Positions 5,285-41,700 of a stretch of DNA of 64,000 nt are shown here, piece after piece; the first letter of the stretch is position 1; each line of letters opens with the position of its first letter. The stretch is from a virus. Made by a program: the position numbers and the translations under genes. The stretch lies in the IMG/VR virus record IMGVR_UViG_3300047289_000086; one strand, 5' to 3'. The notes below the pieces were generated by a model. That model ran no database searches and was not told the origin of the DNA. It saw nothing but the letters and a program-made list of their open reading frames with translations.

Positions 5285-5633
5285 ATTTCACTTACCATCA
5301 TACGCACAACTAAAGTCTCCTACTCAAGAAGTACAAGAAGCCGAGATTGAAAAGCCTAACCTGCCTCCTACCTCACTCCGTCAAGCACAAACTAACTGGT
5401 TGTTGGACAAACTGCAAGAAGAAGCGGCTGAGATAATTCAAGCGGTAAGCAAAATCCGTAGGTTTGGTGAAAACGCAAATCACCCTGACCGCACAACTAC
5501 CAACAAACAAGAACTCGTCAACGAACTTGAAGATTTTCTTGCAATTCTCGCGGCTCTTGAATATACTAAGTACTTGGATTTGGTTCCACATCAACAAAAC
5601 ATACTAAACAAAACGCATAAACTAATGCTCTGA
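5265..5633 (+). CDS. MazG-like all-alpha NTP pyrophosphohydrolase (tentative)
   Basis: LQEEAAEIIQAV...ELVNELEDFLAILAALE matches the EExxE / ExxD helix pattern of the MazG family. Its stop codon lies inside a TGACCCTAA motif. Confidence 0.5.
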   Translation: MNLPPNKFHLPSYAQLKSPTQEVQEAEIEKPNLPPTSLRQAQTNWLLDKLQEEAAEIIQAVSKIRRFGENANHPDRTTTNKQELVNELEDFLAILAALEYTKYLDLVPHQQNILNKTHKLML

Positions 5634-5689
5634 CCCTAAGCCATCACAACCATAAACATCACAAATTATGTCCTCACTTAAAATTGTAC

Positions 5690-5719
5690 TTGTTATTATG
5701 TTATCGAATGTGCTATAAT
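5690..5719 (+). promoter_or_regulatory. sigma70-type promoter with extended -10
   Basis: TTGTTA-N18-(TGc)TATAAT, about 190 nt upstream of ATG 5909. Confidence 0.5.
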
Positions 5720-5908
5720 TTAGTATAACTTAAAGAGTTAGAGACTAGGTTGATTTTAAGAATTGATCTAAATTATCGAAACCACGTAATGACGAGCCCA
5801 GCCGAGGAAATCTAGTGAGGTTTGATACAATTTAGGGTCAAGTCCATAAAATCTAAAACTAGTCTCCTTGCTTATCGACTCGAACCATATTTGAAATCAA
5901 ATTATAAA

Positions 5909-6691
5909 ATGCTTTTTAAAAAACAAGAAATACACTCCATTGATTTTACGGGAACTGAACACCTTAATTTGGAAGGTTGGGAAACTTGGTGTGAACAAAT
6001 GCAATTGTCCCACCTTTCTAGCTGGTTGCTGCCCCAATTGGTTGCGTGGTATGGATCGTGGACTTTAGTTTTAGATGACAAGAGCAATTACGATTGCTTA
6101 GCTACAGTTAAATTAAACTGCTCTGACCCTAAGTCTAGGGCATTTTATATGTTGTCACGAGTTAAACGAAGTCTACTAGTTGCACAACAAACTAAAACTC
6201 CTGATTACGCAAGCTTAACTCCACTTATTTTAATGGGGCTAAAACGTATGCAAGGTATTAACTATGAAACCTTTAGGAACTCTAGTGGCTTACAATATAT
6301 ACTAGAACCCAGACTACTAGATGCCCTTGTACTAAGTTCCGAGGATTTGGAAGTGTGTGGCGGTTTAGGGTCAAACAGACTACTAGAAATACAAAAGCAG
6401 GGATTAACTACTAAGTCGGGTAAAACAGCAGGCAGCATAAAACCTGCTAGATCTACTTGGAGCTTGTCAGGAATACAGGATACTGAGATTGCACACTTGC
6501 CCAAACTAACACAAACTATATTAACACAATGTTGGTTAGCTCATCCTGAGCTACGCACACCTTATATGATCTTAGACTTACAAGACTGGGATAGGATGCC
6601 ACAACCACTAGTTACAAACGACATTTTTAAAGCAGTACAAACACAACAACCTAAACAAGAACTGGCAGGAGTACTGCCTTGGGACCTATGA
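5909..6691 (+). CDS. hypothetical protein
   Basis: Long ORF. First ATG is at 5909; the track uses TTG 5822. No clear RBS. Contains two TGACCCTAA copies in opposite orientation. Confidence 0.55.
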   Translation: MLFKKQEIHSIDFTGTEHLNLEGWETWCEQMQLSHLSSWLLPQLVAWYGSWTLVLDDKSNYDCLATVKLNCSDPKSRAFYMLSRVKRSLLVAQQTKTPDYASLTPLILMGLKRMQGINYETFRNSSGLQYILEPRLLDALVLSSEDLEVCGGLGSNRLLEIQKQGLTTKSGKTAGSIKPARSTWSLSGIQDTEIAHLPKLTQTILTQCWLAHPELRTPYMILDLQDWDRMPQPLVTNDIFKAVQTQQPKQELAGVLPWDL

Positions 6692-7041
6692 AATATACCA
6701 AAGAAATAACAGACAAATTGATCGCAGACTACAAAGCAGGAATTGCTGTCCAGCAGATATCAGCAGATTTAAACGTACCAGAACGTTCAGTGATAGCTAA
6801 ATTAAGCTCTCTGGGCGTGTACGTCAAAAAGAGCTATGTCAACAAGCGTGGTGAGACGCCAGTAAAAAAATCGGAGCACATCGAGCGCATTGCAGAACTA
6901 CTGGACGTGGATGAAGAATTGCTAGAATCGCTGGAGAAGGTAAATAAAACGGTATTGAAGCTAATCGAGAACAAATTAGCCCAATCTGACCCTAAATTGC
7001 ACTATACGCGACAAACTGACCACTTATTTGCAGATGTTTGA
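6688..7041 (+). CDS. small HTH protein, paralog 1 of 4
   Basis: ATGA overlap with the upstream ORF. Shares DYKAG..V..IA..L....RSVIAKLS..GVY.KK.Y..K.GE.PVKK with ORFs 8435, 9389 and 13411. Confidence 0.65.
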   Translation: MKYTKEITDKLIADYKAGIAVQQISADLNVPERSVIAKLSSLGVYVKKSYVNKRGETPVKKSEHIERIAELLDVDEELLESLEKVNKTVLKLIENKLAQSDPKLHYTRQTDHLFADV

Positions 7042-7073
7042 CCCTAAACTGCGTTAATTTGCCCTAAGAACAC

Positions 7074-7110
7074 AAAAGCCTACTTAATTTGCGTTAAGTA
7101 GGCTTTTTTA
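7074..7110. terminator. bidirectional intrinsic terminator
   Basis: AAAAGCCTACTTAA / TTAAGTAGGCTTTT 14 bp stem, T6 on the + strand, A-run on the other side. Confidence 0.75.
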
Positions 7111-7192
7111 CGTCTATTCTAATCAGGTCTAAGCGGGCGTCTAATCGGGTAAGCTTGTTGCGGTTTAGGGTCAGACGCTGAAGAAAATGCAC

Positions 7193-7222
7193 TTGACAAA
7201 CAAGGTTTACCACTTGTATAAT
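7193..7222 (+). promoter_or_regulatory. cassette A promoter
   Basis: TTGACA-N18-TATAAT followed by GGCGCA. Near-identical to the promoter at 9027-9056. Confidence 0.65.
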
Positions 7223-7228
7223 GGCGCA

Positions 7229-7317
7229 GGACCTCGAAGATTTTGCACTTGCGTTTTGGCGCAGTAAATTGCGGGCAAAACAAAAGCCCCTACATCTTGC
7301 GGACGTAGGGGCTTTTG
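7229..7317 (+). ncRNA. candidate ~90 nt sRNA (cassette A)
   Basis: Runs from the promoter at 7193-7222 to the terminator at 7283-7317. No ORF. Homologous to the 9063-9130 segment (TTTTGCAC..GGCGCAG..AAATT). Confidence 0.4.
7283..7317. terminator. bidirectional intrinsic terminator
   Basis: AAAAGCCCCTAC / GTAGGGGCTTTT stem. Tail TTTTG on the + strand and TTTTGTTTTG on the - strand. Confidence 0.75.
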
Positions 7318-8197
7318 AAAGCTTGACCAGTGCACTGGCGGTTATCTTTTTTAACTCTAGCAGGATTTTTAAGGGAATCACCACAACCTGACCCTAAACC
7401 GTAGCCTGTCGCTACATACGACCTCTGGGGATGAATCCATCGCGAAGTTGCCTAGGTGAGCTTTGCACGTTTCGGCTCTGTCAACCGCTACAAGAACTGC
7501 GAGCAGTGTTGTTGGGTATGCTGAGTATCCGTGACTAACTAGTTTAGATTTATGTGGTTCCGCACAACTGTTTTTTCAATTATTTTAACGACCCGCCACA
7601 GTTTAGGGTCAGCGCACCATTATTTAAGCACCCGTAGCTAGGTCTTGTGCATATTAAGAAAGTATGGCTGCCACCGTACTTAATCGCCAGAGAGATTCCA
7701 TACTCTCATTACAGTCACTAAAGTCTGCTCTTGGTTAGAAGATAGCTGTATTTATTTAAGGAGTTCTTTCTCCTAGAGGTTCCTACCTTGTTGTTACCTC
7801 AAAACCAGTTTCCAGTTTTTAACTAACTCATAGAGGAGTCGGCATGGGATATAGGCGGAACATGCTGCCTAGTACTACTACTTTCCTAACACCAGCAAGT
7901 GGTACACGCTAGGGGTTTCGTCCTGACCCTAAGGTACAGCAGGTTATGAGGTTTGAAGTCTCAATGACCTACTGTGAAGTCTTGGGTTTCGCTGAAATTT
8001 CATCAGCTCATCAGAGGATTATAAAAGGGCTGCAACTTAAGTCTTTCAGTCGCAATTAAAAACTTATCCAGTTACGTGTAGAGCTGGTCTTGGTTTACCC
8101 AATCTGTAGGGGGCTGTGGCTCGGACAATTATTCCCCACAATTAAGACGCATAGCAGATATATCCCGCTTCCGCTGTCACCCTTATTCATCAATTTA
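7283..8197 (-). ncRNA. candidate ~0.9 kb non-coding RNA
   Basis: No ORF of 60 aa or more in any frame over 7385-8392. The - strand promoter at 8204-8232 points into it and the terminator at 7283-7317 closes it. By hand count the core 7380-8160 is G+C-richer than the flanks. Confidence 0.4.
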
Positions 8198-8203
8198 TAA
8201 GTA

Positions 8204-8232
8204 ATTATACACTATTTAGATAACTACTTCAA
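8204..8232 (-). promoter_or_regulatory. sigma70-type promoter (P2 of the ORF-free block)
   Basis: Reverse complement reads TTGAAG-N17-TATAAT. Confidence 0.55.
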
Positions 8233-8374
8233 GTAAAAAATTAGACACTCGTTGCAATCAGACTACTCACAAAACAGACTATTGATAAGTTGAGAGGTTG
8301 AGGTGATAATCATTTGCAGACGGACACCAACTTTCATTGGTATTCATTAAGCCCTTCCCGACTGTCTAATATAT

Positions 8375-8403
8375 ATTATACTTGAAAAACAGTTGAAGAT
8401 CAA
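8375..8403 (-). promoter_or_regulatory. sigma70-type promoter (P1 of the ORF-free block)
   Basis: Reverse complement reads TTGATC-N17-TATAAT, just downstream of the stop of gene 8435..8743. Confidence 0.45.
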
Positions 8404-8434
8404 GTCAATATTTTTTGACCCTCAACTGTTGCAA

Positions 8435-8743
8435 TCAACGCAGGTTCTGGAGGATTGCTTCCAACACTTCGTGGTTGGCTTTCTCCAAAGAGTCGAAAGT
8501 CTCTGGAGCAACACCAACACGGTTGGCGATTGCGTCAACAAGGTCAGCCTTCTTGACACGAGCAACACCAGAAGTCTTAGACTTAGGTGTGTAAACTCCC
8601 TCACGAGAGAGTTTGGCAACCACTGAGCGAGTGGTCTTGCCGAACATTGTTGCCAATGTTTCGACAGTAGCGCCAGCTTTGTAGTTGGCAACGAGCTGAG
8701 CTGTTTGCTCAGGTGTATAGTTCACGGGTTTGTCAGTCATCAT
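8435..8743 (-). CDS. small HTH protein, paralog 2 of 4
   Basis: NYTPEQTAQLVANYKAGATVETLATMFGKTTRSVVAKLSREGVY. AAAGGA RBS before ATG 8743/8740. Own promoter at 8782-8810. Confidence 0.7.
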   Translation of the reverse strand: MMTDKPVNYTPEQTAQLVANYKAGATVETLATMFGKTTRSVVAKLSREGVYTPKSKTSGVARVKKADLVDAIANRVGVAPETFDSLEKANHEVLEAILQNLR

Positions 8744-8781
8744 ATGTCCTTTCAAATGGTTTCTGTGCTGTTTAAAGATTA

Positions 8782-8810
8782 ATTATACTCTTAAAAGGGA
8801 ACATCGTCAA
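8782..8810 (-). promoter_or_regulatory. sigma70-type promoter
   Basis: Reverse complement reads TTGACG-N17-TATAAT, upstream of HTH paralog 2. Confidence 0.6.
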
Positions 8811-8925
8811 ATTCAAAAAATTCGTCGTGATCGTTGGTACAGACGAAAACTTCCGATAGTTCTGCACCCGCAAATTCTCTGAAATAGTCTTCCTGAATTT
8901 GTGCGTAAAATTCATGTTCTGTCAT
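8791..8925 (-). CDS. very acidic 44 aa protein (below the ORF-track cutoff)
   Basis: Hand translation MTEHEFYAQIQEDYFREFAGAELSEVFVCTNDHDEFFEFDDVPF. AAAGGG RBS. Own promoter at 8955-8983. Confidence 0.4.
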   Translation of the reverse strand: MTEHEFYAQIQEDYFREFAGAELSEVFVCTNDHDEFFEFDDVPF

Positions 8926-8954
8926 CTCAGAGCCCTTTCTATCTAATATGTATT

Positions 8955-8983
8955 ATTATACAAAATTTGAAAAAATTCAACAA
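8955..8983 (-). promoter_or_regulatory. sigma70-type promoter
   Basis: Reverse complement reads TTGTTG-N17-TATAAT, upstream of the acidic 44 aa ORF. Confidence 0.5.
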
Positions 8984-9026
8984 GTGCAAAGTTTTTGACG
9001 TGAGCTAACCGCCGCTGAAAATCTAC

Positions 9027-9056
9027 TTGACACATCAAGGTTTACCACTGTATAAT
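9027..9056 (+). promoter_or_regulatory. cassette B promoter
   Basis: TTGACA-N18-TATAAT followed by TGGCGCA. Divergent from the - strand promoter at 8955-8983. Confidence 0.65.
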
Positions 9057-9062
9057 TGGCGC

Positions 9063-9222
9063 ACACGCACCAACGGAAAAATTCCCCAAGTTTTTGCACT
9101 GGCGCAGAAAATTTCTGCGCCCAAATAGTACAAAAGTAGTAGTCGCTTTAAGCGACCGTAATCAGGTCTAATCGGGTATTTAAACGGGTAGGGTCGCTTT
9201 AAGCGACCGTTGCGTTTTTGCA
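9063..9222 (+). ncRNA. candidate sRNA (cassette B), 3' end uncertain
   Basis: Hairpins GGCGCAGAAAATTTCTGCGCC and two GTCGCTTTAAGCGAC copies. The second copy is followed by GTTGCGTTTTTG. Confidence 0.35.
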
Positions 9223-9267
9223 ACATAAATTTTGGCGCCGAAGTGAGTGCTCACTTCGCTTGGAGAT

Positions 9268-9305
9268 AATAAAAAACCGATTATCTGATTATGTCAGATA
9301 ATCGG
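9268..9305 (-). terminator. intrinsic terminator of HTH paralog 3
   Basis: CCGATTATCTGA / TCAGATAATCGG stem, followed by a T-run on the - strand. Confidence 0.65.
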
Positions 9306-9388
9306 GGAAAATAGATTACTGGGATTTTAACCCAGATTCCCGATAATAAAAATCGGATATTAAATATTATATGATAATCTATTATTCA

Positions 9389-9709
9389 TTATATAGGCTT
9401 AGAATTAGCTAATGCCTCGAAAATCACTTTTAAGGCATTTTTATTAGCCTTAGTTAATGATTCAATATCATTTTCGGGTAATCGCAAAATCGCCCCAATA
9501 GCATCTGCATGAATATCTTTTTTAATCGCAGATTCTCCGTTTTTGGTTTTATATTCTTTTTTAATATAAACCTTTTCACGAGATAATTTAGCGACAATAC
9601 TCCGAACAGTTTTACCAAGATTATCAGCGATAATCTCAACTGATAATCCTGCCTGATAATCGGCAATAATCTGAGCAGTTTGCTCAGGGGTATAATTAAT
9701 GTTTTTCAT
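9389..9709 (-). CDS. small HTH protein, paralog 3 of 4
   Basis: NYTPEQTAQIIADYQAGLSVEIIADNLGKTVRSIVAKLSREKVY. Followed by the terminator at 9268-9305. Confidence 0.7.
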   Translation of the reverse strand: MKNINYTPEQTAQIIADYQAGLSVEIIADNLGKTVRSIVAKLSREKVYIKKEYKTKNGESAIKKDIHADAIGAILRLPENDIESLTKANKNALKVIFEALANSKPI

Positions 9710-9934: not shown

Positions 9935-10308
9935 TATTTAATCCACATATTATGATGTTTATCGGGAGATAATCCGTAGTTAACCATTATCTCTTGCCAT
10001 TTAATACCATGACCACATTTTGCTTCTGATAATCCAAAAAGATTATAATCGGCTTGGTGGATTATCTCATGCGGTAATATGATTTTAGTCATATTATTTG
10101 CAAATTCTGGAGAATATAAAAAGAATTTATAACCCATTTGAATTATATTATCTTCTTGGTGGCATCTGCCCGCAGTCCGATATATTCTGCCATTAACTTC
10201 AATAATCGGTGGATTATAGCGAGATAATCGGGGATATAATTCGCAAAGAGTATCCCAGATAATCAGAGTCTGATTATTTAAAATATTAGTGAGCTTTTTT
10301 CTGTCCAT
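9934..10308 (-). CDS. SprT-like zinc metalloprotease domain protein
   Basis: HEIIH zincin motif plus RTAGRC. True start MDRKK at 10308. The upstream part of track ORF 9934..10449 covers the promoters. Confidence 0.6.
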   Translation of the reverse strand: MDRKKLTNILNNQTLIIWDTLCELYPRLSRYNPPIIEVNGRIYRTAGRCHQEDNIIQMGYKFFLYSPEFANNMTKIILPHEIIHQADYNLFGLSEAKCGHGIKWQEIMVNYGLSPDKHHNMWIK

Positions 10309-12016: not shown

Positions 12017-12168
12017 TAATGTATTCTCTTAGTTAATATGTCTAGAATCTGTCTTAATGGCATTTGCATTATTTCCGATATATCATAAAGATTTAAGCCT
12101 TCGGCTAAAAAATCTTTAATTAATGTCTCGGCATAATCAACATTAATGCCCTTGTTTACTTGGTACAT
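12016..12168 (-). CDS. hypothetical 50 aa protein (below cutoff)
   Basis: Hand translation MYQVNKGINVDYAETLIKDFLAEGLNLYDISEIMQMPLRQILDILTKRIH, HTH-like. Overlaps the end of the HAD gene. Confidence 0.35.
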   Translation of the reverse strand: MYQVNKGINVDYAETLIKDFLAEGLNLYDISEIMQMPLRQILDILTKRIH

Positions 12169-12619
12169 ATACACCCCTTATATTAAATCTGTCACAAACC
12201 GCTTTTAAATAAGTTACATTATCTTCATAAAACGTAAATTCAGCATCTTTAAATGTAATTAAATTAAAGAATTTAGCTAAACCATTAATTTTTAATGTAG
12301 CACCTGATATACTAGAACCTTCAGTTCTTGAAATAATATAATCAGGTTCACCCAATACCGAGTCAATAAATGTATAATCAGGGGTATTAAGAACACGGGC
12401 AGTAGCAATAATGACATAACACGATTCATCTTTTAAATCCTTTTTATATTGCTCTGCTAATGGTAAGAGAGAATCATTCAAGGCTAAATCTTGATTTTCT
12501 CTCCAATAATTTAAATCTATTCTCTCGCCATTTTCATCTACGATTGTGCGATACCTATGCAAACTGCAAACAATAGTTCCATCCATATCATAAATTGAAA
12601 CCTTTTTAATTTTAGCCAT
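12143..12619 (-). CDS. HAD-superfamily phosphatase
   Basis: Start MAKIKK after AAAGGA. DxDxT motif YDMDGT. Confidence 0.65.
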   Translation of the reverse strand: MAKIKKVSIYDMDGTIVCSLHRYRTIVDENGERIDLNYWRENQDLALNDSLLPLAEQYKKDLKDESCYVIIATARVLNTPDYTFIDSVLGEPDYIISRTEGSSISGATLKINGLAKFFNLITFKDAEFTFYEDNVTYLKAVCDRFNIRGVYVPSKQGH

Positions 12620-12711
12620 TTTGTAATCCTTTTCTGTTATTGTCCCCATTATACACAAAAACCGCCAAAAAAACCATGTGTGCTAAAATACAACATAGGG
12701 GTTTACACCTA

Positions 12712-13410: not shown

Positions 13411-13737
13411 TTACAAGGTCTTTTCAGCCTTGATAAAATCAGCAATTTTCATCAAAGCAATTTTATTTGCTTTAGTGAGTGATTCTGTATCAGCTTCAGT
13501 CAAGCCTAGTGCATTACCGATAAAATCAGCGTGAACATCCTTTTTAATAGGTGTCTCGCCTGATTTCGTTTTGTATGCTTTAGCAACATAAACCTTTTCA
13601 CGGCTCAATTTTGCAACAACAGAACGAACAGTTTTGCCGAATGATTCAGCAATGGTTTCTACGCTAGTGCCAGCTTGATAGTCGGCAACCATTCGAGCAG
13701 TTTGCTCAGGCGTGTAATTCACAGTTTTGGTAGTCAT
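13411..13737 (-). CDS. small HTH protein, paralog 4 of 4
   Basis: NYTPEQTARMVADYQAGTSVETIAESFGKTVRSVVAKLSREKVY. Terminator at 13382-13410. Confidence 0.7.
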   Translation of the reverse strand: MTTKTVNYTPEQTARMVADYQAGTSVETIAESFGKTVRSVVAKLSREKVYVAKAYKTKSGETPIKKDVHADFIGNALGLTEADTESLTKANKIALMKIADFIKAEKTL

Positions 13738-18149: not shown

Positions 18150-19436
18150 ATGTTAGTAGTCTCACGACCAGATATCAATGTCGATGTTATACAAGAGTTT
18201 GATCCTCAACAGAGGTTTATTAAGCTACCCATAACAAATTACTTAAAACTGTTGGATGTATACGACACAATCAATCGCCCACAGGTTGCACTCATAAACG
18301 CAGTCAACGATCCCAAATACAGGTTTATCTGTGCTGCACTAGCACGCAGGCTTGGCAAAACTTATATTGCCAACATCATTGGTCAGTTAGTTACACTTGT
18401 ACCTGGCAGTAATGTGCTGATCATTTCACCTAACTATAACTTATCTTCAATATCATTTGAACTCCAACGCAAACTCATCAAACACTTCGACCTCGAAGTC
18501 GCACGTGACAACCTCAAAGACAAAATTATCGAACTCAGCAACGGTTCTACCATTCGTATGGGTTCTCTTAGTACCGTTGATAGTACTGTTGGTCGATCAT
18601 ATGACTTAATCATATTTGATGAGGCTGCCCTAGGCGAAGGCGGTGAAGCAGCTTTTAATGTTGCGCTTAGACCTACACTAGACAAGCCCCAAGCCAAAGC
18701 CATTTTTATCTCTACACCTCGTGGTCGTAACAATTGGTTTTCGCAGTTTTGGCAGCGTGGATTTGATCCAGGTTTCCCCGAGTGGATATCACTGCAAGCA
18801 GATTACACTGAAAATACCCGCATGGCTGAGTCAGACGTTGCCGAAGCGCGACGCTCAATGTCAAAGTCAGAGTTCGAACAAGAATATTTAGCCTCATTTT
18901 CCGTATTTGAGGGTCAGATTTACACACTACAGGATACAGATGTTATTGACATTCCAGAAGATATTAAAGGCGAAGCGTTTGCTGGATGCGACCCTGGTTA
19001 CCGAGACGCTACTGCTTATTGCGCTATCGTTTACGATTGGAACCGCGATTGCTTTTTTATTGTCGACGAATACTTAAAGTCGGAAAAAACTACAGCAGAA
19101 CACGCAGAAGCATTTACTCAAATGAATGAGAAACACGGAGTTGAAGTTACTTTTATTGACTCGGCAGCTGCACAGTTTGCAGGTGACTTGGCTTATCTCT
19201 ACAACATTTCAACTACCAAAGCTAAAAAAGATGTCTTACCAGGCATTGCGTATGTTCAGACCTTGTTACAACAGGGTCGATTAAAGGTTGCTCCACATTG
19301 CACTAACGTGCGAGCCATGTTTGACCAGTATCGCTGGGACCAACGTGAGGGGCTCCAGCGTGAGCGTCCAATGCATGATGATTATAGTCACATGGCCGAT
19401 GCCGTCAGATATGCGCTGTATACCTATACTGTTTAA
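18150..19436 (+). CDS. terL: terminase large subunit
   Basis: Walker A-like RRLGKT, Walker B LIIFDEAA, C-terminal nuclease-like domain, 428 aa. Confidence 0.9.
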   Translation: MLVVSRPDINVDVIQEFDPQQRFIKLPITNYLKLLDVYDTINRPQVALINAVNDPKYRFICAALARRLGKTYIANIIGQLVTLVPGSNVLIISPNYNLSSISFELQRKLIKHFDLEVARDNLKDKIIELSNGSTIRMGSLSTVDSTVGRSYDLIIFDEAALGEGGEAAFNVALRPTLDKPQAKAIFISTPRGRNNWFSQFWQRGFDPGFPEWISLQADYTENTRMAESDVAEARRSMSKSEFEQEYLASFSVFEGQIYTLQDTDVIDIPEDIKGEAFAGCDPGYRDATAYCAIVYDWNRDCFFIVDEYLKSEKTTAEHAEAFTQMNEKHGVEVTFIDSAAAQFAGDLAYLYNISTTKAKKDVLPGIAYVQTLLQQGRLKVAPHCTNVRAMFDQYRWDQREGLQRERPMHDDYSHMADAVRYALYTYTV

Positions 19437-21600: not shown

Positions 21601-23553
21601 ATGGTAGATAAAAGTAAAGTACTGTTTTTAAACAGTTCATTTATCAAGAGCGATACCACCGACGAAAAGACAGCTAGTATAACAATCGAAGGGTACGCAA
21701 GTACCGATGACATTGATAGACAAGGCGACATTGTCCCAGCAAGTGTATGGAAAAAGGGTATACAAAATTATTTGAAGAATCCAGTAATTTTGGCATATCA
21801 CGACCATAGCGAGCCAGTTGGTAGGATGGTAGATCACAGAGTTGACAGCAAGGGATTATGGGTTAAAGCCAGAATTTCTTCAGCTGCTGGCGAAGTTTTT
21901 GATCTTGTAAAAGATGGCATCTTAACGGCATTTAGTATCGGCTTCCGAATCATAGATGCGGAATATGATGCAGCCAAAGAGTTGTTTGTGGTAAAAGAGC
22001 TAGAACTGCACGAAATTTCAGTAGTGTCAGTACCAGCTAATCAAAATACACTATTTAGTCTTTCTAAGGCGTTTGATACAGCCGAAGAATTTAAATCTTT
22101 CAAAATGCAGTTTGCACCCGACAGCGATTCAGCTAAAGGGCTAGAATCCTCAACGGAAGCAATCGGCGAAATTAAAAAGGAATGGGAAATGGATCCTAAA
22201 CAATTAGAACAAATGTTGGCTGATGCAGCTAACAAAGCGGCTGAGCAAACTGCAAAAGCCATTGCCGATACACAGGCAAAAGCATTGGCCGAAAAAGCCG
22301 CTGCTGACAAGGCTGAAGCCGAATTAGATGCACGCGTTAAAGCCGCTGTTGCTTCTATCTCTACTGGCGACACAGGTGCTGAGCGCTTGATGGCCGAAGT
22401 TGAGAAGCGTTTAGCTACTGCTGAAGAGTCAAGCAAATCAGTTATCGCTGGTTTAGAAGCCTCTTTGCGTGAAAAAGCTTCCGAAATCGAAGCAATTACA
22501 AAATCAAAAATGTCTTTCCAGGACAGCAAAGACGGTATGTCTTACGCTGACAAAGAAAAGGCTGTTATGTTGTCCAAAATGGCTGGCAAGTCAGTTGACG
22601 GTACACGTCTTGGTCGCGAATTAGTGCAAAAATACGGTGCTCACGTGCCTTCAGCCACATGGGAACTCGAAGTTTCTTTGAACCTTGAGTCTGAAGTTCG
22701 TCGTCGCTTAGTTGTTGCTCCTATTTTCCGCAACATCGCTATGCAAACCAACGTGATGACCATTCCAGTGAATCCAGAAGCAGGTACTGCTACTTGGGTC
22801 ACTGATGCCAACTTTGGCGCCGTTCCTGCTACCCTTGGTGCAGCTGGTGCTTCTGCTGGTACAACTGCTACCCACGCTCTCAAAGAAATCACTTTGAATG
22901 CTTATAAACTTGCCACAAACGAATATACAGCATACGAAGAAGAAGAAGATTCTTTGTTGGCTTTGATGCCAATCATTCGTGATGGTATGGTTCGTCGTGT
23001 TGCTCGCGCCGTTGACAAGGCTTTCTTGTTAGGTGCAGGTTCCGGTTCTGATCCTGTTAAAGGATTGTCAGTCTGGGCTTCCAACACTACTGCTGTTGGC
23101 GCAACTGCTCCTAACACTGTTGCTGCTGGTTTGAACGTTGCTAAATTGCGCACATTGCGTCAAGGTTTGGGTGCTTGGGGTCTCGACCCAGCTGAAGTGA
23201 TCTATATCGTTAATACCGATGTTTATTATCAATTGCTGGAAGACACAACCTTCCAAACCATGAACCAAGTTGGTACACAAGCTACACTGTTAACCGGTCA
23301 AATCGGTCAAATCGGTGGAAGCCCAGTGTTGGTTTCTGCAGAGTTCGCTTCACCAGCTACTGGCGTTGCAGGAGCTATCTGTGTAAACCCAGGCAACTTT
23401 ATCGTTGGTAACCAGCGCGGTCTCCGCATTGATACCCAAGAATTAGTTGAAACACAACGTCGCGTTATGGTGGCTAGCCTCCGTACTGGTATGACACGTG
23501 TTACTACTAACTTAGGTAACGCTGTTACAGCACACAAGTACACAGCAACCTGA
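21601..23553 (+). CDS. prohead protease - scaffold-like linker - HK97-fold major capsid protein fusion
   Basis: The N-terminus (EGYAS.DDIDRQGDIV, AYHDHSEPVGR, FSIGF, SVVSVPAN) looks like HK97-type prohead protease. The middle is an Ala/Glu/Lys coiled coil. The C-terminus looks capsid-like. A strong terminator follows. Confidence 0.85.
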   Translation: MVDKSKVLFLNSSFIKSDTTDEKTASITIEGYASTDDIDRQGDIVPASVWKKGIQNYLKNPVILAYHDHSEPVGRMVDHRVDSKGLWVKARISSAAGEVFDLVKDGILTAFSIGFRIIDAEYDAAKELFVVKELELHEISVVSVPANQNTLFSLSKAFDTAEEFKSFKMQFAPDSDSAKGLESSTEAIGEIKKEWEMDPKQLEQMLADAANKAAEQTAKAIADTQAKALAEKAAADKAEAELDARVKAAVASISTGDTGAERLMAEVEKRLATAEESSKSVIAGLEASLREKASEIEAITKSKMSFQDSKDGMSYADKEKAVMLSKMAGKSVDGTRLGRELVQKYGAHVPSATWELEVSLNLESEVRRRLVVAPIFRNIAMQTNVMTIPVNPEAGTATWVTDANFGAVPATLGAAGASAGTTATHALKEITLNAYKLATNEYTAYEEEEDSLLALMPIIRDGMVRRVARAVDKAFLLGAGSGSDPVKGLSVWASNTTAVGATAPNTVAAGLNVAKLRTLRQGLGAWGLDPAEVIYIVNTDVYYQLLEDTTFQTMNQVGTQATLLTGQIGQIGGSPVLVSAEFASPATGVAGAICVNPGNFIVGNQRGLRIDTQELVETQRRVMVASLRTGMTRVTTNLGNAVTAHKYTAT

Positions 23554-38706: not shown

Positions 38707-41700
38707 ATGGCAGCAAGCTTATCCGCAGGTGTAAATTCACTAATATTAAAGTTAGACACTCCTTATGATAGTCTAAGAACTTATGATATTAGGGATGACT
38801 TAGTTAAAGTAAAGGTCTGGTGTTCTACTACGTCAGGCTTTACACCATCAGATAGTAATCTAGTGTTTAATGCTAGTGGTCTGTCTATTATTATATCATC
38901 GATACCCAATGGCACTAGCACACCAACTCCCATAGTAGCAGGTACAACGTACTATGTAAAGTATGCTTTTATTAGTGCTATTGAAGAGTCTGAGTTTACT
39001 ATTTTATCACCAACACCTGCCTTTGCAGTTCCTGTAACAGGAGCTGCAGGCAGTAGTGTTTCTATGGTATTTAAACGCAGTGCTACTCAGCCTGCTACAC
39101 CTGATCCAAGTGCGTCTACACCTGCAGGTTGGTATCCAGATGTAAATTCAGTACCAGTAGGAACTGATGCTATTTGGACTAGTGTTGGTTCAAAATCAAG
39201 TACTGCAACACTATTTACTTGGCAAACTCCAGTTCGTGTCGAAGGCGAAGGCGGAGTACGTGGTGATAGCGCGCGTATTGCTTACAAAACACAAAGTCAA
39301 CAGCTAGCTGCACCAGTAATCAGCGAAACAAATAGTCAAACTACAGGAAATACTAGTTTTCCAACAGGTTGGTCGGGGACTATTACTACACCTACGGCAG
39401 GACAAAGTCTTTGGGCAGTAGACGGTATTTTTAATACCCCTTCTAATAAGACAACTTGGAGCACCCCTTACTTAACGCAAGGCTTTCCTACCACTATTCA
39501 AAGTGACAACTATAATGCAAACACATTAGGTTGGCAAATTCAGCGTGATACTGGAAATGCTTTCTTTAATAATGTTACCGCACGCGGTAGTCTTATTACT
39601 GGTGACATTGCAGCGCAACGTATTGAGATTAATAAAGTTGTTACACCTGGAACTGCAACTACACAACAAGTTGGTACCAATAGACTAGAAGCTTTTTCAA
39701 GTAATAATATTAGATTTTTAACACTTGGTGGTTCAGGCGGAACTACGCAAGATACTGCTGTTATCGGTATTAGTGCTAATAACAATGTTATAAACCCTGT
39801 TTGGATTGAAAGTAGTGCTGATATTGGCTCTAATATTCTAAGCAATACGTTAGGCAAAGCTAATGCTATTTCTTCAGTATCTAATAATGGTGGACGTTTA
39901 TTTTATGGTTATGTAACAGGACCCGGAGCAAATGCGCCTAAAGATGCTTTTCAGATTGATGTAAATAGTCCTAATCATACTGGTAATGCTATTGCTATAA
40001 ATATGGGTGCCAGTACAGGATCCGCTATTTCTGTTGGTGGTAGTGGGGATGGGTACGCAATTGATGCAGTTACAAATACTAGTGGAGCTGCGGGCACTAA
40101 ATCTGGTATTGCTTACTTTCGTGGAATAGATTTTCCTACAACTCAAGCCGTACTTACAGGAAGCGGTTCACAAGCAAAAATTACAGTTAATTTTACTAAC
40201 TTAAATACTGCTGGCGAATTAACTTATTCATTTACGCTAGAGGGTGTATCTTACAGCTTTCCACTAGAGTACGACTTTGAAACTTTTAATAGTTTGCCAC
40301 TGTTTGTTAGTGCTATAGCTGCATCTATTAATAATACGTGGCAAGTGTCCTATACTACTGCAAATACAGCAAGTCCGTTTGCTAGTGGCAGTTTTATTCT
40401 TACAAAACCAACAGTTGGAGTAGCTACAGGTACTAACTCTGGTTCTATTGGCACATTTACTGGTAGTTTTGTAAACGGTACTGCACCTACTTATACTACC
40501 AGTAATACTAAGGTTCGTCTTACTCCTTTTCCAAACGACACTACAAAAGTATTACGCGGAGATGGGTCATGGGGAACTGTTGCAGGTTCGGGCGGGTATG
40601 TAGATCTTCGCTACAGTGTTCGTGATTATGGTGCTAAAGGTGATAATAGTACAGACGATACAGCGGCTATTCAAGCTACTATTAATATGGCAAGAACTAC
40701 GGGTGGAACAGTTTATTTTCCACGCGGAGTATATACCATTACGTCTAGCTTAAACTATACTGCTATTGCAGGTAACGACCCAATTTATAGGGTTCACTTT
40801 GCTGGAGACGGTATTGGCGCAAGTTTAATCCGCCAAATTGGCAGTGGTGATGGACTAGTTATTGCAGGATACACAGGTAGCCCTATAAATCCTAATTTGT
40901 ATACACACATTTCCGATCTTCAGTTTGTGGGTTCAGGTAGTGGCCAAGGTTTAAGTATAACTAATGGTGCTTATGTATATGTAGAAGCCTGCCACTTTAC
41001 AAATTGGGCATATGGTTTTTATGGATCTAACTTTTTAAGTTCTACATTTTCAGCTTGTGCTTTCCGTTTTAATCAACGCGGTTTTGTAATTGAACGCATA
41101 GCTGGTGGAAACTATGCTAGTAGTCCGAACGCCCTTACAATGCTAAATTGTGAGATAGGTGCTAATTCACTGTTTGGTGGTTGGGTACTTGGTCCTGGTG
41201 TATTTACTATGCAAGGCGGGGCTATCGAAGGAAATGGTACTACATCGGGTAGTACGTCAAACTGGGGTTTAAAGATAAGCGAACCAAGCGGTTCTACTGC
41301 AATAGAAAGTGCAGTTGGAGTTTCACTTGATGGTGTTTACTTTGAAGTTAACTCAGGTATTGCTGACTTGTGGATTGAAAGTAGCTCAGCAAAACCAGGT
41401 GTAACAAATAATATTAATGGTTGTAGCTTTGTACGTATAAGCAGTAATTATCCAACATATAGTATTTTACTATATGCTTCTAGCGCAGCCAATAGCTATA
41501 ACAATGTTATTAGTGGTTGCGGATTTAAAGGACTGTCAGGATATACTCCAAGTGCTAGTCGCATGACTATTTCAAACTACAACACTAAAGTACAATTATT
41601 AGGCTGTAGTTTTGACAGTGTTGTAGATGCTTATGTTACTGGAGACGAAAATCAGTTTGAAACCGCCCTACGTGTTCCAGACCTTAAAGATCTTAGCGGT

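Follow-up and report, generated by a model that had tools for sequence, protein, structure and literature searches.

A probable locus for a large structured non-coding RNA with a predicted hammerhead ribozyme in a T5-like phage

The DNA considered here is a stretch of 64,000 nucleotides (nt; hereafter, the window) from the IMG/VR virus record IMGVR_UViG_3300047289_000086, and its largest gap free of open reading frames (ORFs) measures 1008 nt, the runner-up being 447 nt long. In this gap, at 7385-8392, no ORF of 60 amino acids or more occurs in any frame, as a preliminary description of the sequence had stated, and the longest found reach 32-37 amino acids. The block is flanked by convergent gene clusters, each edged by a paralogous gene for a D5-like helix-turn-helix protein, at 6679-7041 on the plus strand and at 8435-8755 on the minus strand. 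The same description had proposed that the block encodes a large structured non-coding RNA (ncRNA) with its own promoter and terminator; conservation, the lack of a coding signature and covariation among relatives support this proposal, and the block is probably the minus-strand ncRNA locus of a T5-like phage, with tandem promoters and a long RNA that a hammerhead ribozyme would split in two.

Regarding the transcription signals, a consensus scan located two promoters on the minus strand: P1 (TTGATC-17-TATAAT, 8375-8403), with both hexamers conserved in 27 of 27 aligned relatives, and P2 (TTGAAG-17-TATAAT, 8204-8232), conserved in all aligned relatives. Upstream of the P1 -35 hexamer lies an inverted repeat of the GGGTCA...TGACCC type (I7) or a copy of a dispersed motif described below. 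Both promoter-like sites had been pointed out before, and both are present and conserved; what had been missed is that the one at 8403-8375 would drive a separate small RNA of ~135 nt. This structured RNA, sRNA-A (8235-8369, minus strand, with putative ends), has the closing stem UUAGACAGUCG/CGAGUGUCUAA followed by a run of six U, and P2 comes directly after it; RNAalifold on 39 distinct sequences gave 26 pairs, 11 of them with compensatory change. No Rfam match was found for sRNA-A, and a scan of genome contigs with its motif found none either, so that it provides no clue to the host.

As for the long RNA, its transcription would start near 8197, behind P2, and would yield a ncRNA of ~0.92 kb (7275-8197, minus strand), with both ends placed from promoter and terminator. 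The intrinsic terminator (7281-7317, minus strand, tail UUUUGUUUUG) contains the hairpin 7283-7317 with its TTTTGTTTTG tail on the minus strand, already recognised in the preliminary description; the hairpin is present and covaries in relatives, corresponding to helix 39 of the consensus structure, with 99.7% of cells paired and compensatory change in 2 of its pairs. On the plus strand, the terminator tail is only UUUUGAAA. The minus strand was assigned because of the hammerhead core, the conserved P1 and P2, and the better U-tract on that strand.

Relatives of the block were sought by several routes. A blastn search against cultured phage genomes gave no match, and no related loci were found via a neighbouring protein of 289 amino acids; the D5-like neighbour protein retrieved 40 IMG/VR loci, the closer of which have the whole block 72-92% identical. 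Scanning metagenome contigs with a conserved DNA pattern of 24 bases added 46 further loci, and a scan of viral contigs for the hammerhead pattern found 36, ten of them new and mostly on contigs of ~100 kb. The block is conserved across about 100 related metagenomic contigs; alignment A2 comprises 35 distinct full-length copies of 850-1000 nt, defined by nhmmer. The nucleotide conservation that the preliminary description had proposed to look for is therefore present, both in these copies and in the identity of the closer relatives.

Metagenome contigs often end inside the block (L001, L004, L008, L009, L016, L019, L024 and L025), which points to high strain-level diversity fragmenting the assemblies. 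A contig of 100 kb, IMGVR_UViG_3300043436_004120 (L105, L118), has the hammerhead at both ends: a 127-nt exact overlap is followed by a variant copy of the block with 90% identity, and this arrangement is an assembly bubble between strain variants rather than a terminal repeat.

The comparison with relatives indicates that the block is non-coding. The indels relative to the window sequence are multiples of three in 13% of cases; variability by codon phase is flat in the block (0.160/0.161/0.156), in contrast to that of the adjacent D5-like gene (0.087/0.056/0.218), and no ORF common to the block in the relatives was found. The strong contrast in G+C content claimed earlier, with coding lines in the upper 20s to 30s (percent), was overstated: G+C is 0.42 in the block and 0.45 in the long RNA, against a window mean of 0.386 (standard deviation 0.030, 1-kb windows), so that the block ranks only within the top 8% of such windows; its immediate flanks have values of 0.39-0.51. 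Folding of the single sequence gave mild z-scores, -2.6 for the minus strand and -1.5 for the plus strand (20 shuffles each).

Within the long RNA, a type I hammerhead ribozyme is predicted at 7921-8018 on the minus strand, with coordinates checked against the sequence; it had been overlooked in the preliminary description and is, on comparative grounds, assigned as a new member of this known ribozyme class. Stem I is formed by 8018-8015 (UCCU) and 7924-7921 (AGGA), and is followed by the core CUGAUGA (8014-8008), stem II (8007-8003 with 7995-7991, reading GCUGA-UGAAAUU-UCAGC over 8007-7991), GAAA (7990-7987) and stem III (7987-7979 with 7934-7926), which encloses a long hairpin extension. The cleavage triplet is GUC, with C17 at 7925, and the predicted cut falls between C7925 and A7924, where it would divide the long RNA into pieces of ~273 and ~650 nt. 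The pairing of 7936-7944 with 7968-7976, proposed before the ribozyme was noticed, is real and lies inside the stem III extension (helix 13), where 6 of 8 pairs have compensatory change.

The hammerhead was found in at least 31 loci, and the segment 8021-7907 is retained even by the most distant relatives. Its core (C3-A9, G12-A14, A15.1-U16.1) is invariant in 26 distinct sequences, in which position N7 holds U or C, while H17 is C in 23 sequences, A in the other 3 and never G; the same core was found in 12 further loci, which contribute extra variants of stem II and stem III. Over the 26 sequences, 87.6% of cells are paired, against 76.6% in shuffles and 27-46% with slid partners, and compensatory change occurs in 10 of 18 pairs, a count that 0 of 500 shuffles reach; by stem, it affects 1 of 4 pairs in stem I, 4 of 5 in stem II and 5 of 9 in stem III. 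The core-adjacent pairs 10-111 (UA or AU), 18-34 (GC) and 38-109 (AU) form in all 26 sequences, in agreement with the acceptance rule of Perreault et al. (2011, PMC3088659), by which N1.1-N2.1, N10.1-N11.1 and A15.1-U16.1 must be intact next to the core. Finally, a covariance model built from these hammerheads has a single match in the window, with 109 bits.

Like known type I hammerheads (Rfam clan CL00010), the predicted ribozyme has the invariant CUGAUGA...GAAA core, the closing pairs G10.1-C11.1 and A15.1-U16.1, a GUC/GUA cleavage triplet, three covarying stems, an open stem I and an intergenic location in a phage. Unlike them, it has a structured insertion of ~45 nt in stem III and a stem I of 3-4 base pairs (bp), and it resides inside a structured ncRNA of ~0.9 kb, not next to a gene. 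Intergenic hammerheads have been reported in the phages PaP3 and Bcep176 and in prophages, and some hammerheads cut long transcripts (PMC3088659); no literature linking hammerheads with T5-like phages or Demerecviridae was found.

The structure of the whole long RNA was assembled from RNAalifold predictions for each domain and the canonical hammerhead, and was counted on A2. The consensus has 197 pairs in 39 helices, with 93.6% of cells paired (34-44% with slid partners), and compensatory (double-sided) change occurs in 74 of the 197 pairs; shuffles give 39.3 ± 3.5, with 0 of 500 reaching 74, and slid partners give 17-30. Since this structure was derived from the same alignment on which it was scored, a split-sample test was performed: the structure obtained from 13 sequences holds in the 22 held-out ones, with 92.9% of cells paired and 72 compensatory pairs, against 13-25 with slid partners. 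The covariation on which the preliminary description had made its proposal depend is thus found, in the full alignment as well as in the held-out sequences.

Regarding its organization, the long RNA is divided into domains, all on the minus strand. The 5' domain, D1 (8027-8182), is a multi-helix junction closed by GGGU/GCCC (8182-8179 with 8030-8027) and abuts hammerhead stem I; it contains helices 1-9, with compensatory changes in helices 2, 3, 7 and 9. D2 (7686-7924), with which the predicted 3' cleavage product begins, comprises helices 15-27 with several covarying hairpins, and its near-invariant stretch CCCUAGCGUGUACCACU...GGUGUUAGG is invariant in 16 relatives found via the neighbouring protein. 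A variable central region follows (7540-7685, A2 columns 670-1040), with poor alignment and no supported RNA structure; it contains 1-3 copies of a (C/T)GACCCTAAAC..GGGTCG unit and an A/T-rich run. The 3' domain, D3 (7324-7539), includes helices 28-38 and is detectable by nhmmer in distant relatives; its helix 7456-7450 with 7399-7393 uses a copy of the dispersed motif.

The length upstream of the ribozyme varies among the relatives. In the natural variants L005 and L016 the first half of D1 (8179-8102) is absent, while five others (L013, L067, L051, L077 and L069) have an insertion of ~60 nt just after the putative transcription start (A2 columns 23-82); among 59 distinct relatives the distance from promoter to ribozyme ranges from 122 to 412 nt, and the alignment of D1 across all 59 is too gappy for use. 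Distant phage contigs of ~100 kb show this succession again (promoter, ~0.2-0.4 kb, hammerhead, ~0.5-0.8 kb, T-run): 11 of 12 further contigs have a TTGnnn-N16-18-TAnAAT promoter 170-450 nt upstream of the ribozyme, and 11 of the 12 have a T-run 460-800 nt downstream of it. In another locus that reproduces the layout (L035), with the promoter at 9234-9262, the hammerhead at 9574-9682 and the terminator at 10158-10177, only the ribozyme region is detectably similar to the profile.

A further feature of the locus is a dispersed motif of 11-12 nt, GTTTAGGGTCAG/CTGACCCTAAAC, with copies at 5631, 5830, 6363, 6987, 7039, 7163, 7389, 7601, 7923 and 8416; the GTTTAGGGTCAG copies in or near the block are at 7163-7174, 7388-7399, 7601-7612, 7923-7934 and 8416-8426. 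Scored as TGACCCTAAAC with at most one mismatch, the motif occurs 12 times in the window, where 0.9 copies are expected (~13-fold enrichment), and nine of them fall within 5631-8426, on both strands and also inside neighbouring coding genes. The relatives (L001-L033) keep the motif in both orientations, and at both P1 and a plus-strand promoter a copy directly precedes the -35 hexamer. The hammerhead cleavage site itself falls on a copy of the motif; the dispersed copies do not covary with the site.

This motif explains the long-range helices of the preliminary description, 7388-7399 with 7601-7612 and 7923-7932 with 7603-7612: the complementarity exists, but the segments are copies of TGACCCTAAAC. 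In the consensus structure 7399-7393 pairs with 7456-7450, and 7934-7926 forms the 3' side of stem III in the hammerhead. The pairing of the central CUGACCCUAAAC with the ribozyme site, formerly suggested as an alternative partner, was discarded, as no covarying partner appears in L017, L018 and L020. The idea that the motif copies are trans-cleavage targets or extra ribozymes was rejected as well, because in relatives with a different ribozyme site (L017, L018, L020 and L006) the dispersed copies still have TTTAGGGTCAG, and because the hammerhead model finds only one copy in the window. Most likely, GTTTAGGGTCAG is a protein-binding DNA site for a phage regulator, and the flanking D5-like helix-turn-helix paralogues are candidates for the binding protein.

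The plus-strand promoter mentioned above (TTGACA-18-TATAAT, 7193-7222, a perfect consensus) is preceded by the motif copy 7163-7174, faces the terminator and is conserved in relatives; given this orientation towards the end of the long RNA, an antisense RNA or a short RNA could arise from it. A paralogous promoter with the same perfect consensus, TTGACA-18-TATAAT, is at 9027-9056 on the plus strand, and the leaders 7193-7270 and 9027-9100 are similar. This second promoter is within another ORF-poor stretch, 8756-9388, together with two GTCGCTTTAAGCGAC hairpins and a terminator at 9277-9305.

As for the phage, Pfam and PHROG matches in the window identify a T5-type structural module and early genes, and the large terminase (18150-19436) has 49% identity to its counterparts in Vibrio T5-like phages; by these likenesses the source of the window is assigned to the T5-like (Demerecviridae-like) phages. 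The 64-kb window contains no tRNAs, and no Rfam family reaches its gathering threshold anywhere in it. The scanned neighbours of the block include thymidylate synthase, NTP pyrophosphohydrolase, D5-like and SprT-like genes. Four paralogous small D5-like/GcrA-like helix-turn-helix proteins (phrog_323/1725) are encoded around the RNA locus, at 6679-7041 on the plus strand and at 8435-8755, 9389-9709 and 13411-13737 on the minus strand. The ORF 12143-12658 (minus strand) matches the PHROG polynucleotide-kinase family (E = 2e-8) and has no Pfam match; if its product were a polynucleotide kinase, its substrates would include the 5'-OH and 2',3'-cyclic phosphate ends left by a hammerhead, which is a lead only. 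Finally, a single ORF of 650 amino acids (21601-23553, plus strand) joins an N-terminal prohead protease domain (Peptidase_S78) to a major capsid domain (Phage_capsid).

Whether the block belongs to GOLLD or ROOL could not be told in the preliminary description; covariance models of GOLLD, ROOL, HEARO, OLE and raiA gave no match at E ≤ 10 over 6900-8700 on either strand. GOLLD and ROOL, both Rfam families, are large ornate RNAs of phages and bacteria and figure in a paper based on cryogenic electron microscopy (PMC12286853). Like these two, the present RNA is several hundred to ~900 nt long, non-coding and phage-borne, with many covarying helices; judged from contig names only, many relatives seem to be lake-derived, which recalls the "Lake" in GOLLD's name. 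Unlike them, it has no adjoining tRNAs, it holds a predicted self-cleaving ribozyme, and its long-range architecture is less supported. No prior description of this large phage ncRNA was found in the literature searched, and the larger RNA of the block is rated here, on comparative evidence, as a new family of large phage RNAs in which a ribozyme of a known class is embedded.

The nearest analogue, possibly a functional one, is the RNAX of phage T5, annotated (AY543070, L123) as a 719-nt "stable RNA with unknown functions" at 40848-41566 on the minus strand, behind the promoter P16-17. Both are large non-coding RNAs in the early region of a Demerecviridae genome; in both cases a strong early promoter precedes the RNA, the thymidylate synthase gene is within a few kb, and a bidirectional terminator (annotated as efficient in T5) is close by, with genes converging on it. 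They differ in that RNAX has the same orientation as thy and abuts tRNA-Arg, while the present RNA is convergent to the thy cluster and has no tRNA. Model R1 detected no hammerhead in RNAX, and nhmmer profiles of the long RNA and of sRNA-A found nothing in T5 1-50000 at E ≤ 10; no similarity being detected, homology was set aside and the relation is treated as analogy only.

A further point of comparison is the injection-stop-signal (iss) untranslated region of T5, which exceeds 1 kb, is placed between convergent gene blocks and has repeats conserved across relatives; a large untranslated region belongs to the long terminal repeats of T5-like phages (Davison, bioRxiv 10.1101/866236). The iss region is marked by paired DnaA boxes inside inverted repeats, and it occupies the inner end of the terminal repeat, beside the pre-early genes dmp, A1 and A2. 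The present block is superficially similar, as an untranslated stretch between convergent blocks, dense in direct and inverted repeats. Unlike iss, it lacks DnaA boxes (of four TTWTNCACA matches in the window, 0 fall within 7000-8500), a location in a terminal repeat is not supported, and its conservation follows RNA base-pairing. In addition, A1, A2 and dmp had no match among the neighbouring ORFs scanned, and the identification of the block with the iss region was rejected on these grounds.

Several observations weigh against a single, integrated, self-cleaving RNA. The ends of the RNAs, their abundance, their transcription and the cleavage itself are deduced from sequence. At the gathering threshold, the Rfam hammerhead models gave no match in the window or in six relatives; the best score, that of Hammerhead_3, is 19.8 bits versus a gathering score of 48.5, and covers only 8041-7981, plausibly because of the ~45-nt insert in stem III and the 3-4 bp of stem I. 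That stem is indeed short, and its fourth pair is mismatched in 11 of 35 sequences. Most of the supported helices are local hairpins, while the long-range closing helices 1, 16 and 24 have no compensatory change, and thus the case for "many conserved hairpins" is firmer than that for "one ornate RNA". Distant relatives have another sequence in place of D2, and L005 and L016 lack part of D1, which speaks for modularity rather than one integrated fold. Furthermore, 22 of the 35 A2 sequences were retrieved by an exact match inside D2, and the invariance of that stretch in them is by construction. As for the strand, helices predicted on both strands have 96 G-U versus 84 A-C cells, with D1 leaning the opposite way.

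These observations bear on a different reading, namely that the block is a cluster of independent short elements (sRNA, ribozyme, regulatory hairpins and terminator), in which the ribozyme processes a leader or spacer transcript, a role already proposed for other hammerheads of phages. Such a cluster would account for the promoter and U-run that sRNA-A has of its own, for the local character of the covarying helices, for the swapping of D2 in distant relatives and the loss of half of D1 in two of them, and for the varying copy number in the central region, and it has precedents in the phage intergenic hammerheads and the hammerheads cutting long transcripts cited above. It is nonetheless unlikely: the consensus scan found no minus-strand promoter or terminator between 8197 and 7317; 3' of the long RNA there is the terminator and then convergent genes, hence no downstream gene for a ribozyme to liberate; and the order D1, hammerhead, 3' domain, terminator is kept in distant clades together with the length of ~0.9 kb. 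The dispersed motif raises instead the case of an element that acts mainly as DNA, for example as an origin of replication, as a site for partition or packaging, or as an array of operators. Its components would be GTTTAGGGTCAG/GGGTCA half-sites together with an A/T-rich run, set between strong promoters that converge, and RNA structure would be secondary. The ~13-fold enrichment of the motif on both strands, inside coding genes and in relatives, its place just upstream of the -35 hexamer at two promoters, the variable-copy array beside the A/T-rich run, and the lack of covariation between dispersed copies and the hammerhead site (L017, L018 and L020) agree with it, but it is very improbable as the whole explanation, since it leaves 74 compensatory pairs over ~900 nt and a strand-specific hammerhead core unexplained, and the motif fills less than 10% of the block. 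A DNA-binding function is compatible with an RNA locus, and the motif is taken here as a regulatory layer on top of it.

The least probable reading by far is that of a decayed pseudogene, of unannotated small ORFs, or of an assembly junction or genome terminus. It could appeal to the many metagenome contigs that end in the block, to the 100-kb contig with a hammerhead at both ends, and to the large untranslated region in the long terminal repeats of T5-like phages. Yet the block has no codon periodicity, indels that are not multiples of three and no frame common to the relatives, it has no DnaA boxes, and its scanned neighbours have no A1, A2 or dmp match. A genome terminus or assembly junction, which the preliminary description had named as a way for its proposal to fail, was not seen: in the window and in several long contigs the sequence continues unbroken across the block, and the two-ended contig, with its variant copy, is an assembly bubble; a terminus was accordingly rejected.

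Under the favoured reading, a minus-strand ncRNA locus, a host RNA polymerase of the sigma-70 type would start at the two tandem conserved promoters, and P1 would produce the structured sRNA of ~135 nt, while P2 would produce the RNA of ~0.92 kb ending at the intrinsic terminator 7317-7283. The long RNA would fold into the modular domains D1, hammerhead, D2 and D3, and the type I hammerhead would cleave itself between C7925 and A7924, releasing a 5' piece of ~273 nt, with D1 and the ribozyme and a 2',3'-cyclic phosphate end, and a 3' piece of ~650 nt, with D2, the variable region and D3 and a 5'-OH start. A phage regulator binding GTTTAGGGTCAG would control these promoters, a role for which the D5-like paralogues are candidates. 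As a guess, the RNAs would be abundant, expressed early and act in trans as structured RNAs or ribonucleoproteins in host takeover, and ribozyme processing would separate and end-protect two functional pieces.

A bolder version of this model can be put forward tentatively, with somewhat less than even confidence: the locus may represent an undescribed class of multi-domain phage RNA of ~0.9 kb with an integral hammerhead, in which D1, since it abuts stem I, could gate cleavage as a natural allosteric hammerhead, and the end-protected products would act in host takeover. If true, the two products would be structured RNAs or RNA-only assemblies in a widespread T5-like lineage known so far only from metagenomes.

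In conclusion, large structured ncRNAs are rare and fall into a handful of classes, each of which revealed an unexpected architecture, with functions mostly open. The present locus would add an RNA family whose comparative support, from about 100 contigs with 35 distinct full-length copies among them, is unusually good, and the predicted self-cleavage is an easily assayed activity that offers a direct handle on expression, processing and function. In addition, the Rfam models miss a clear hammerhead whose stem III has a long insert and whose stem I is short, and similar phage ribozymes may be under-counted. Finally, the result suggests revisiting the 719-nt RNAX of T5, a tractable model phage.

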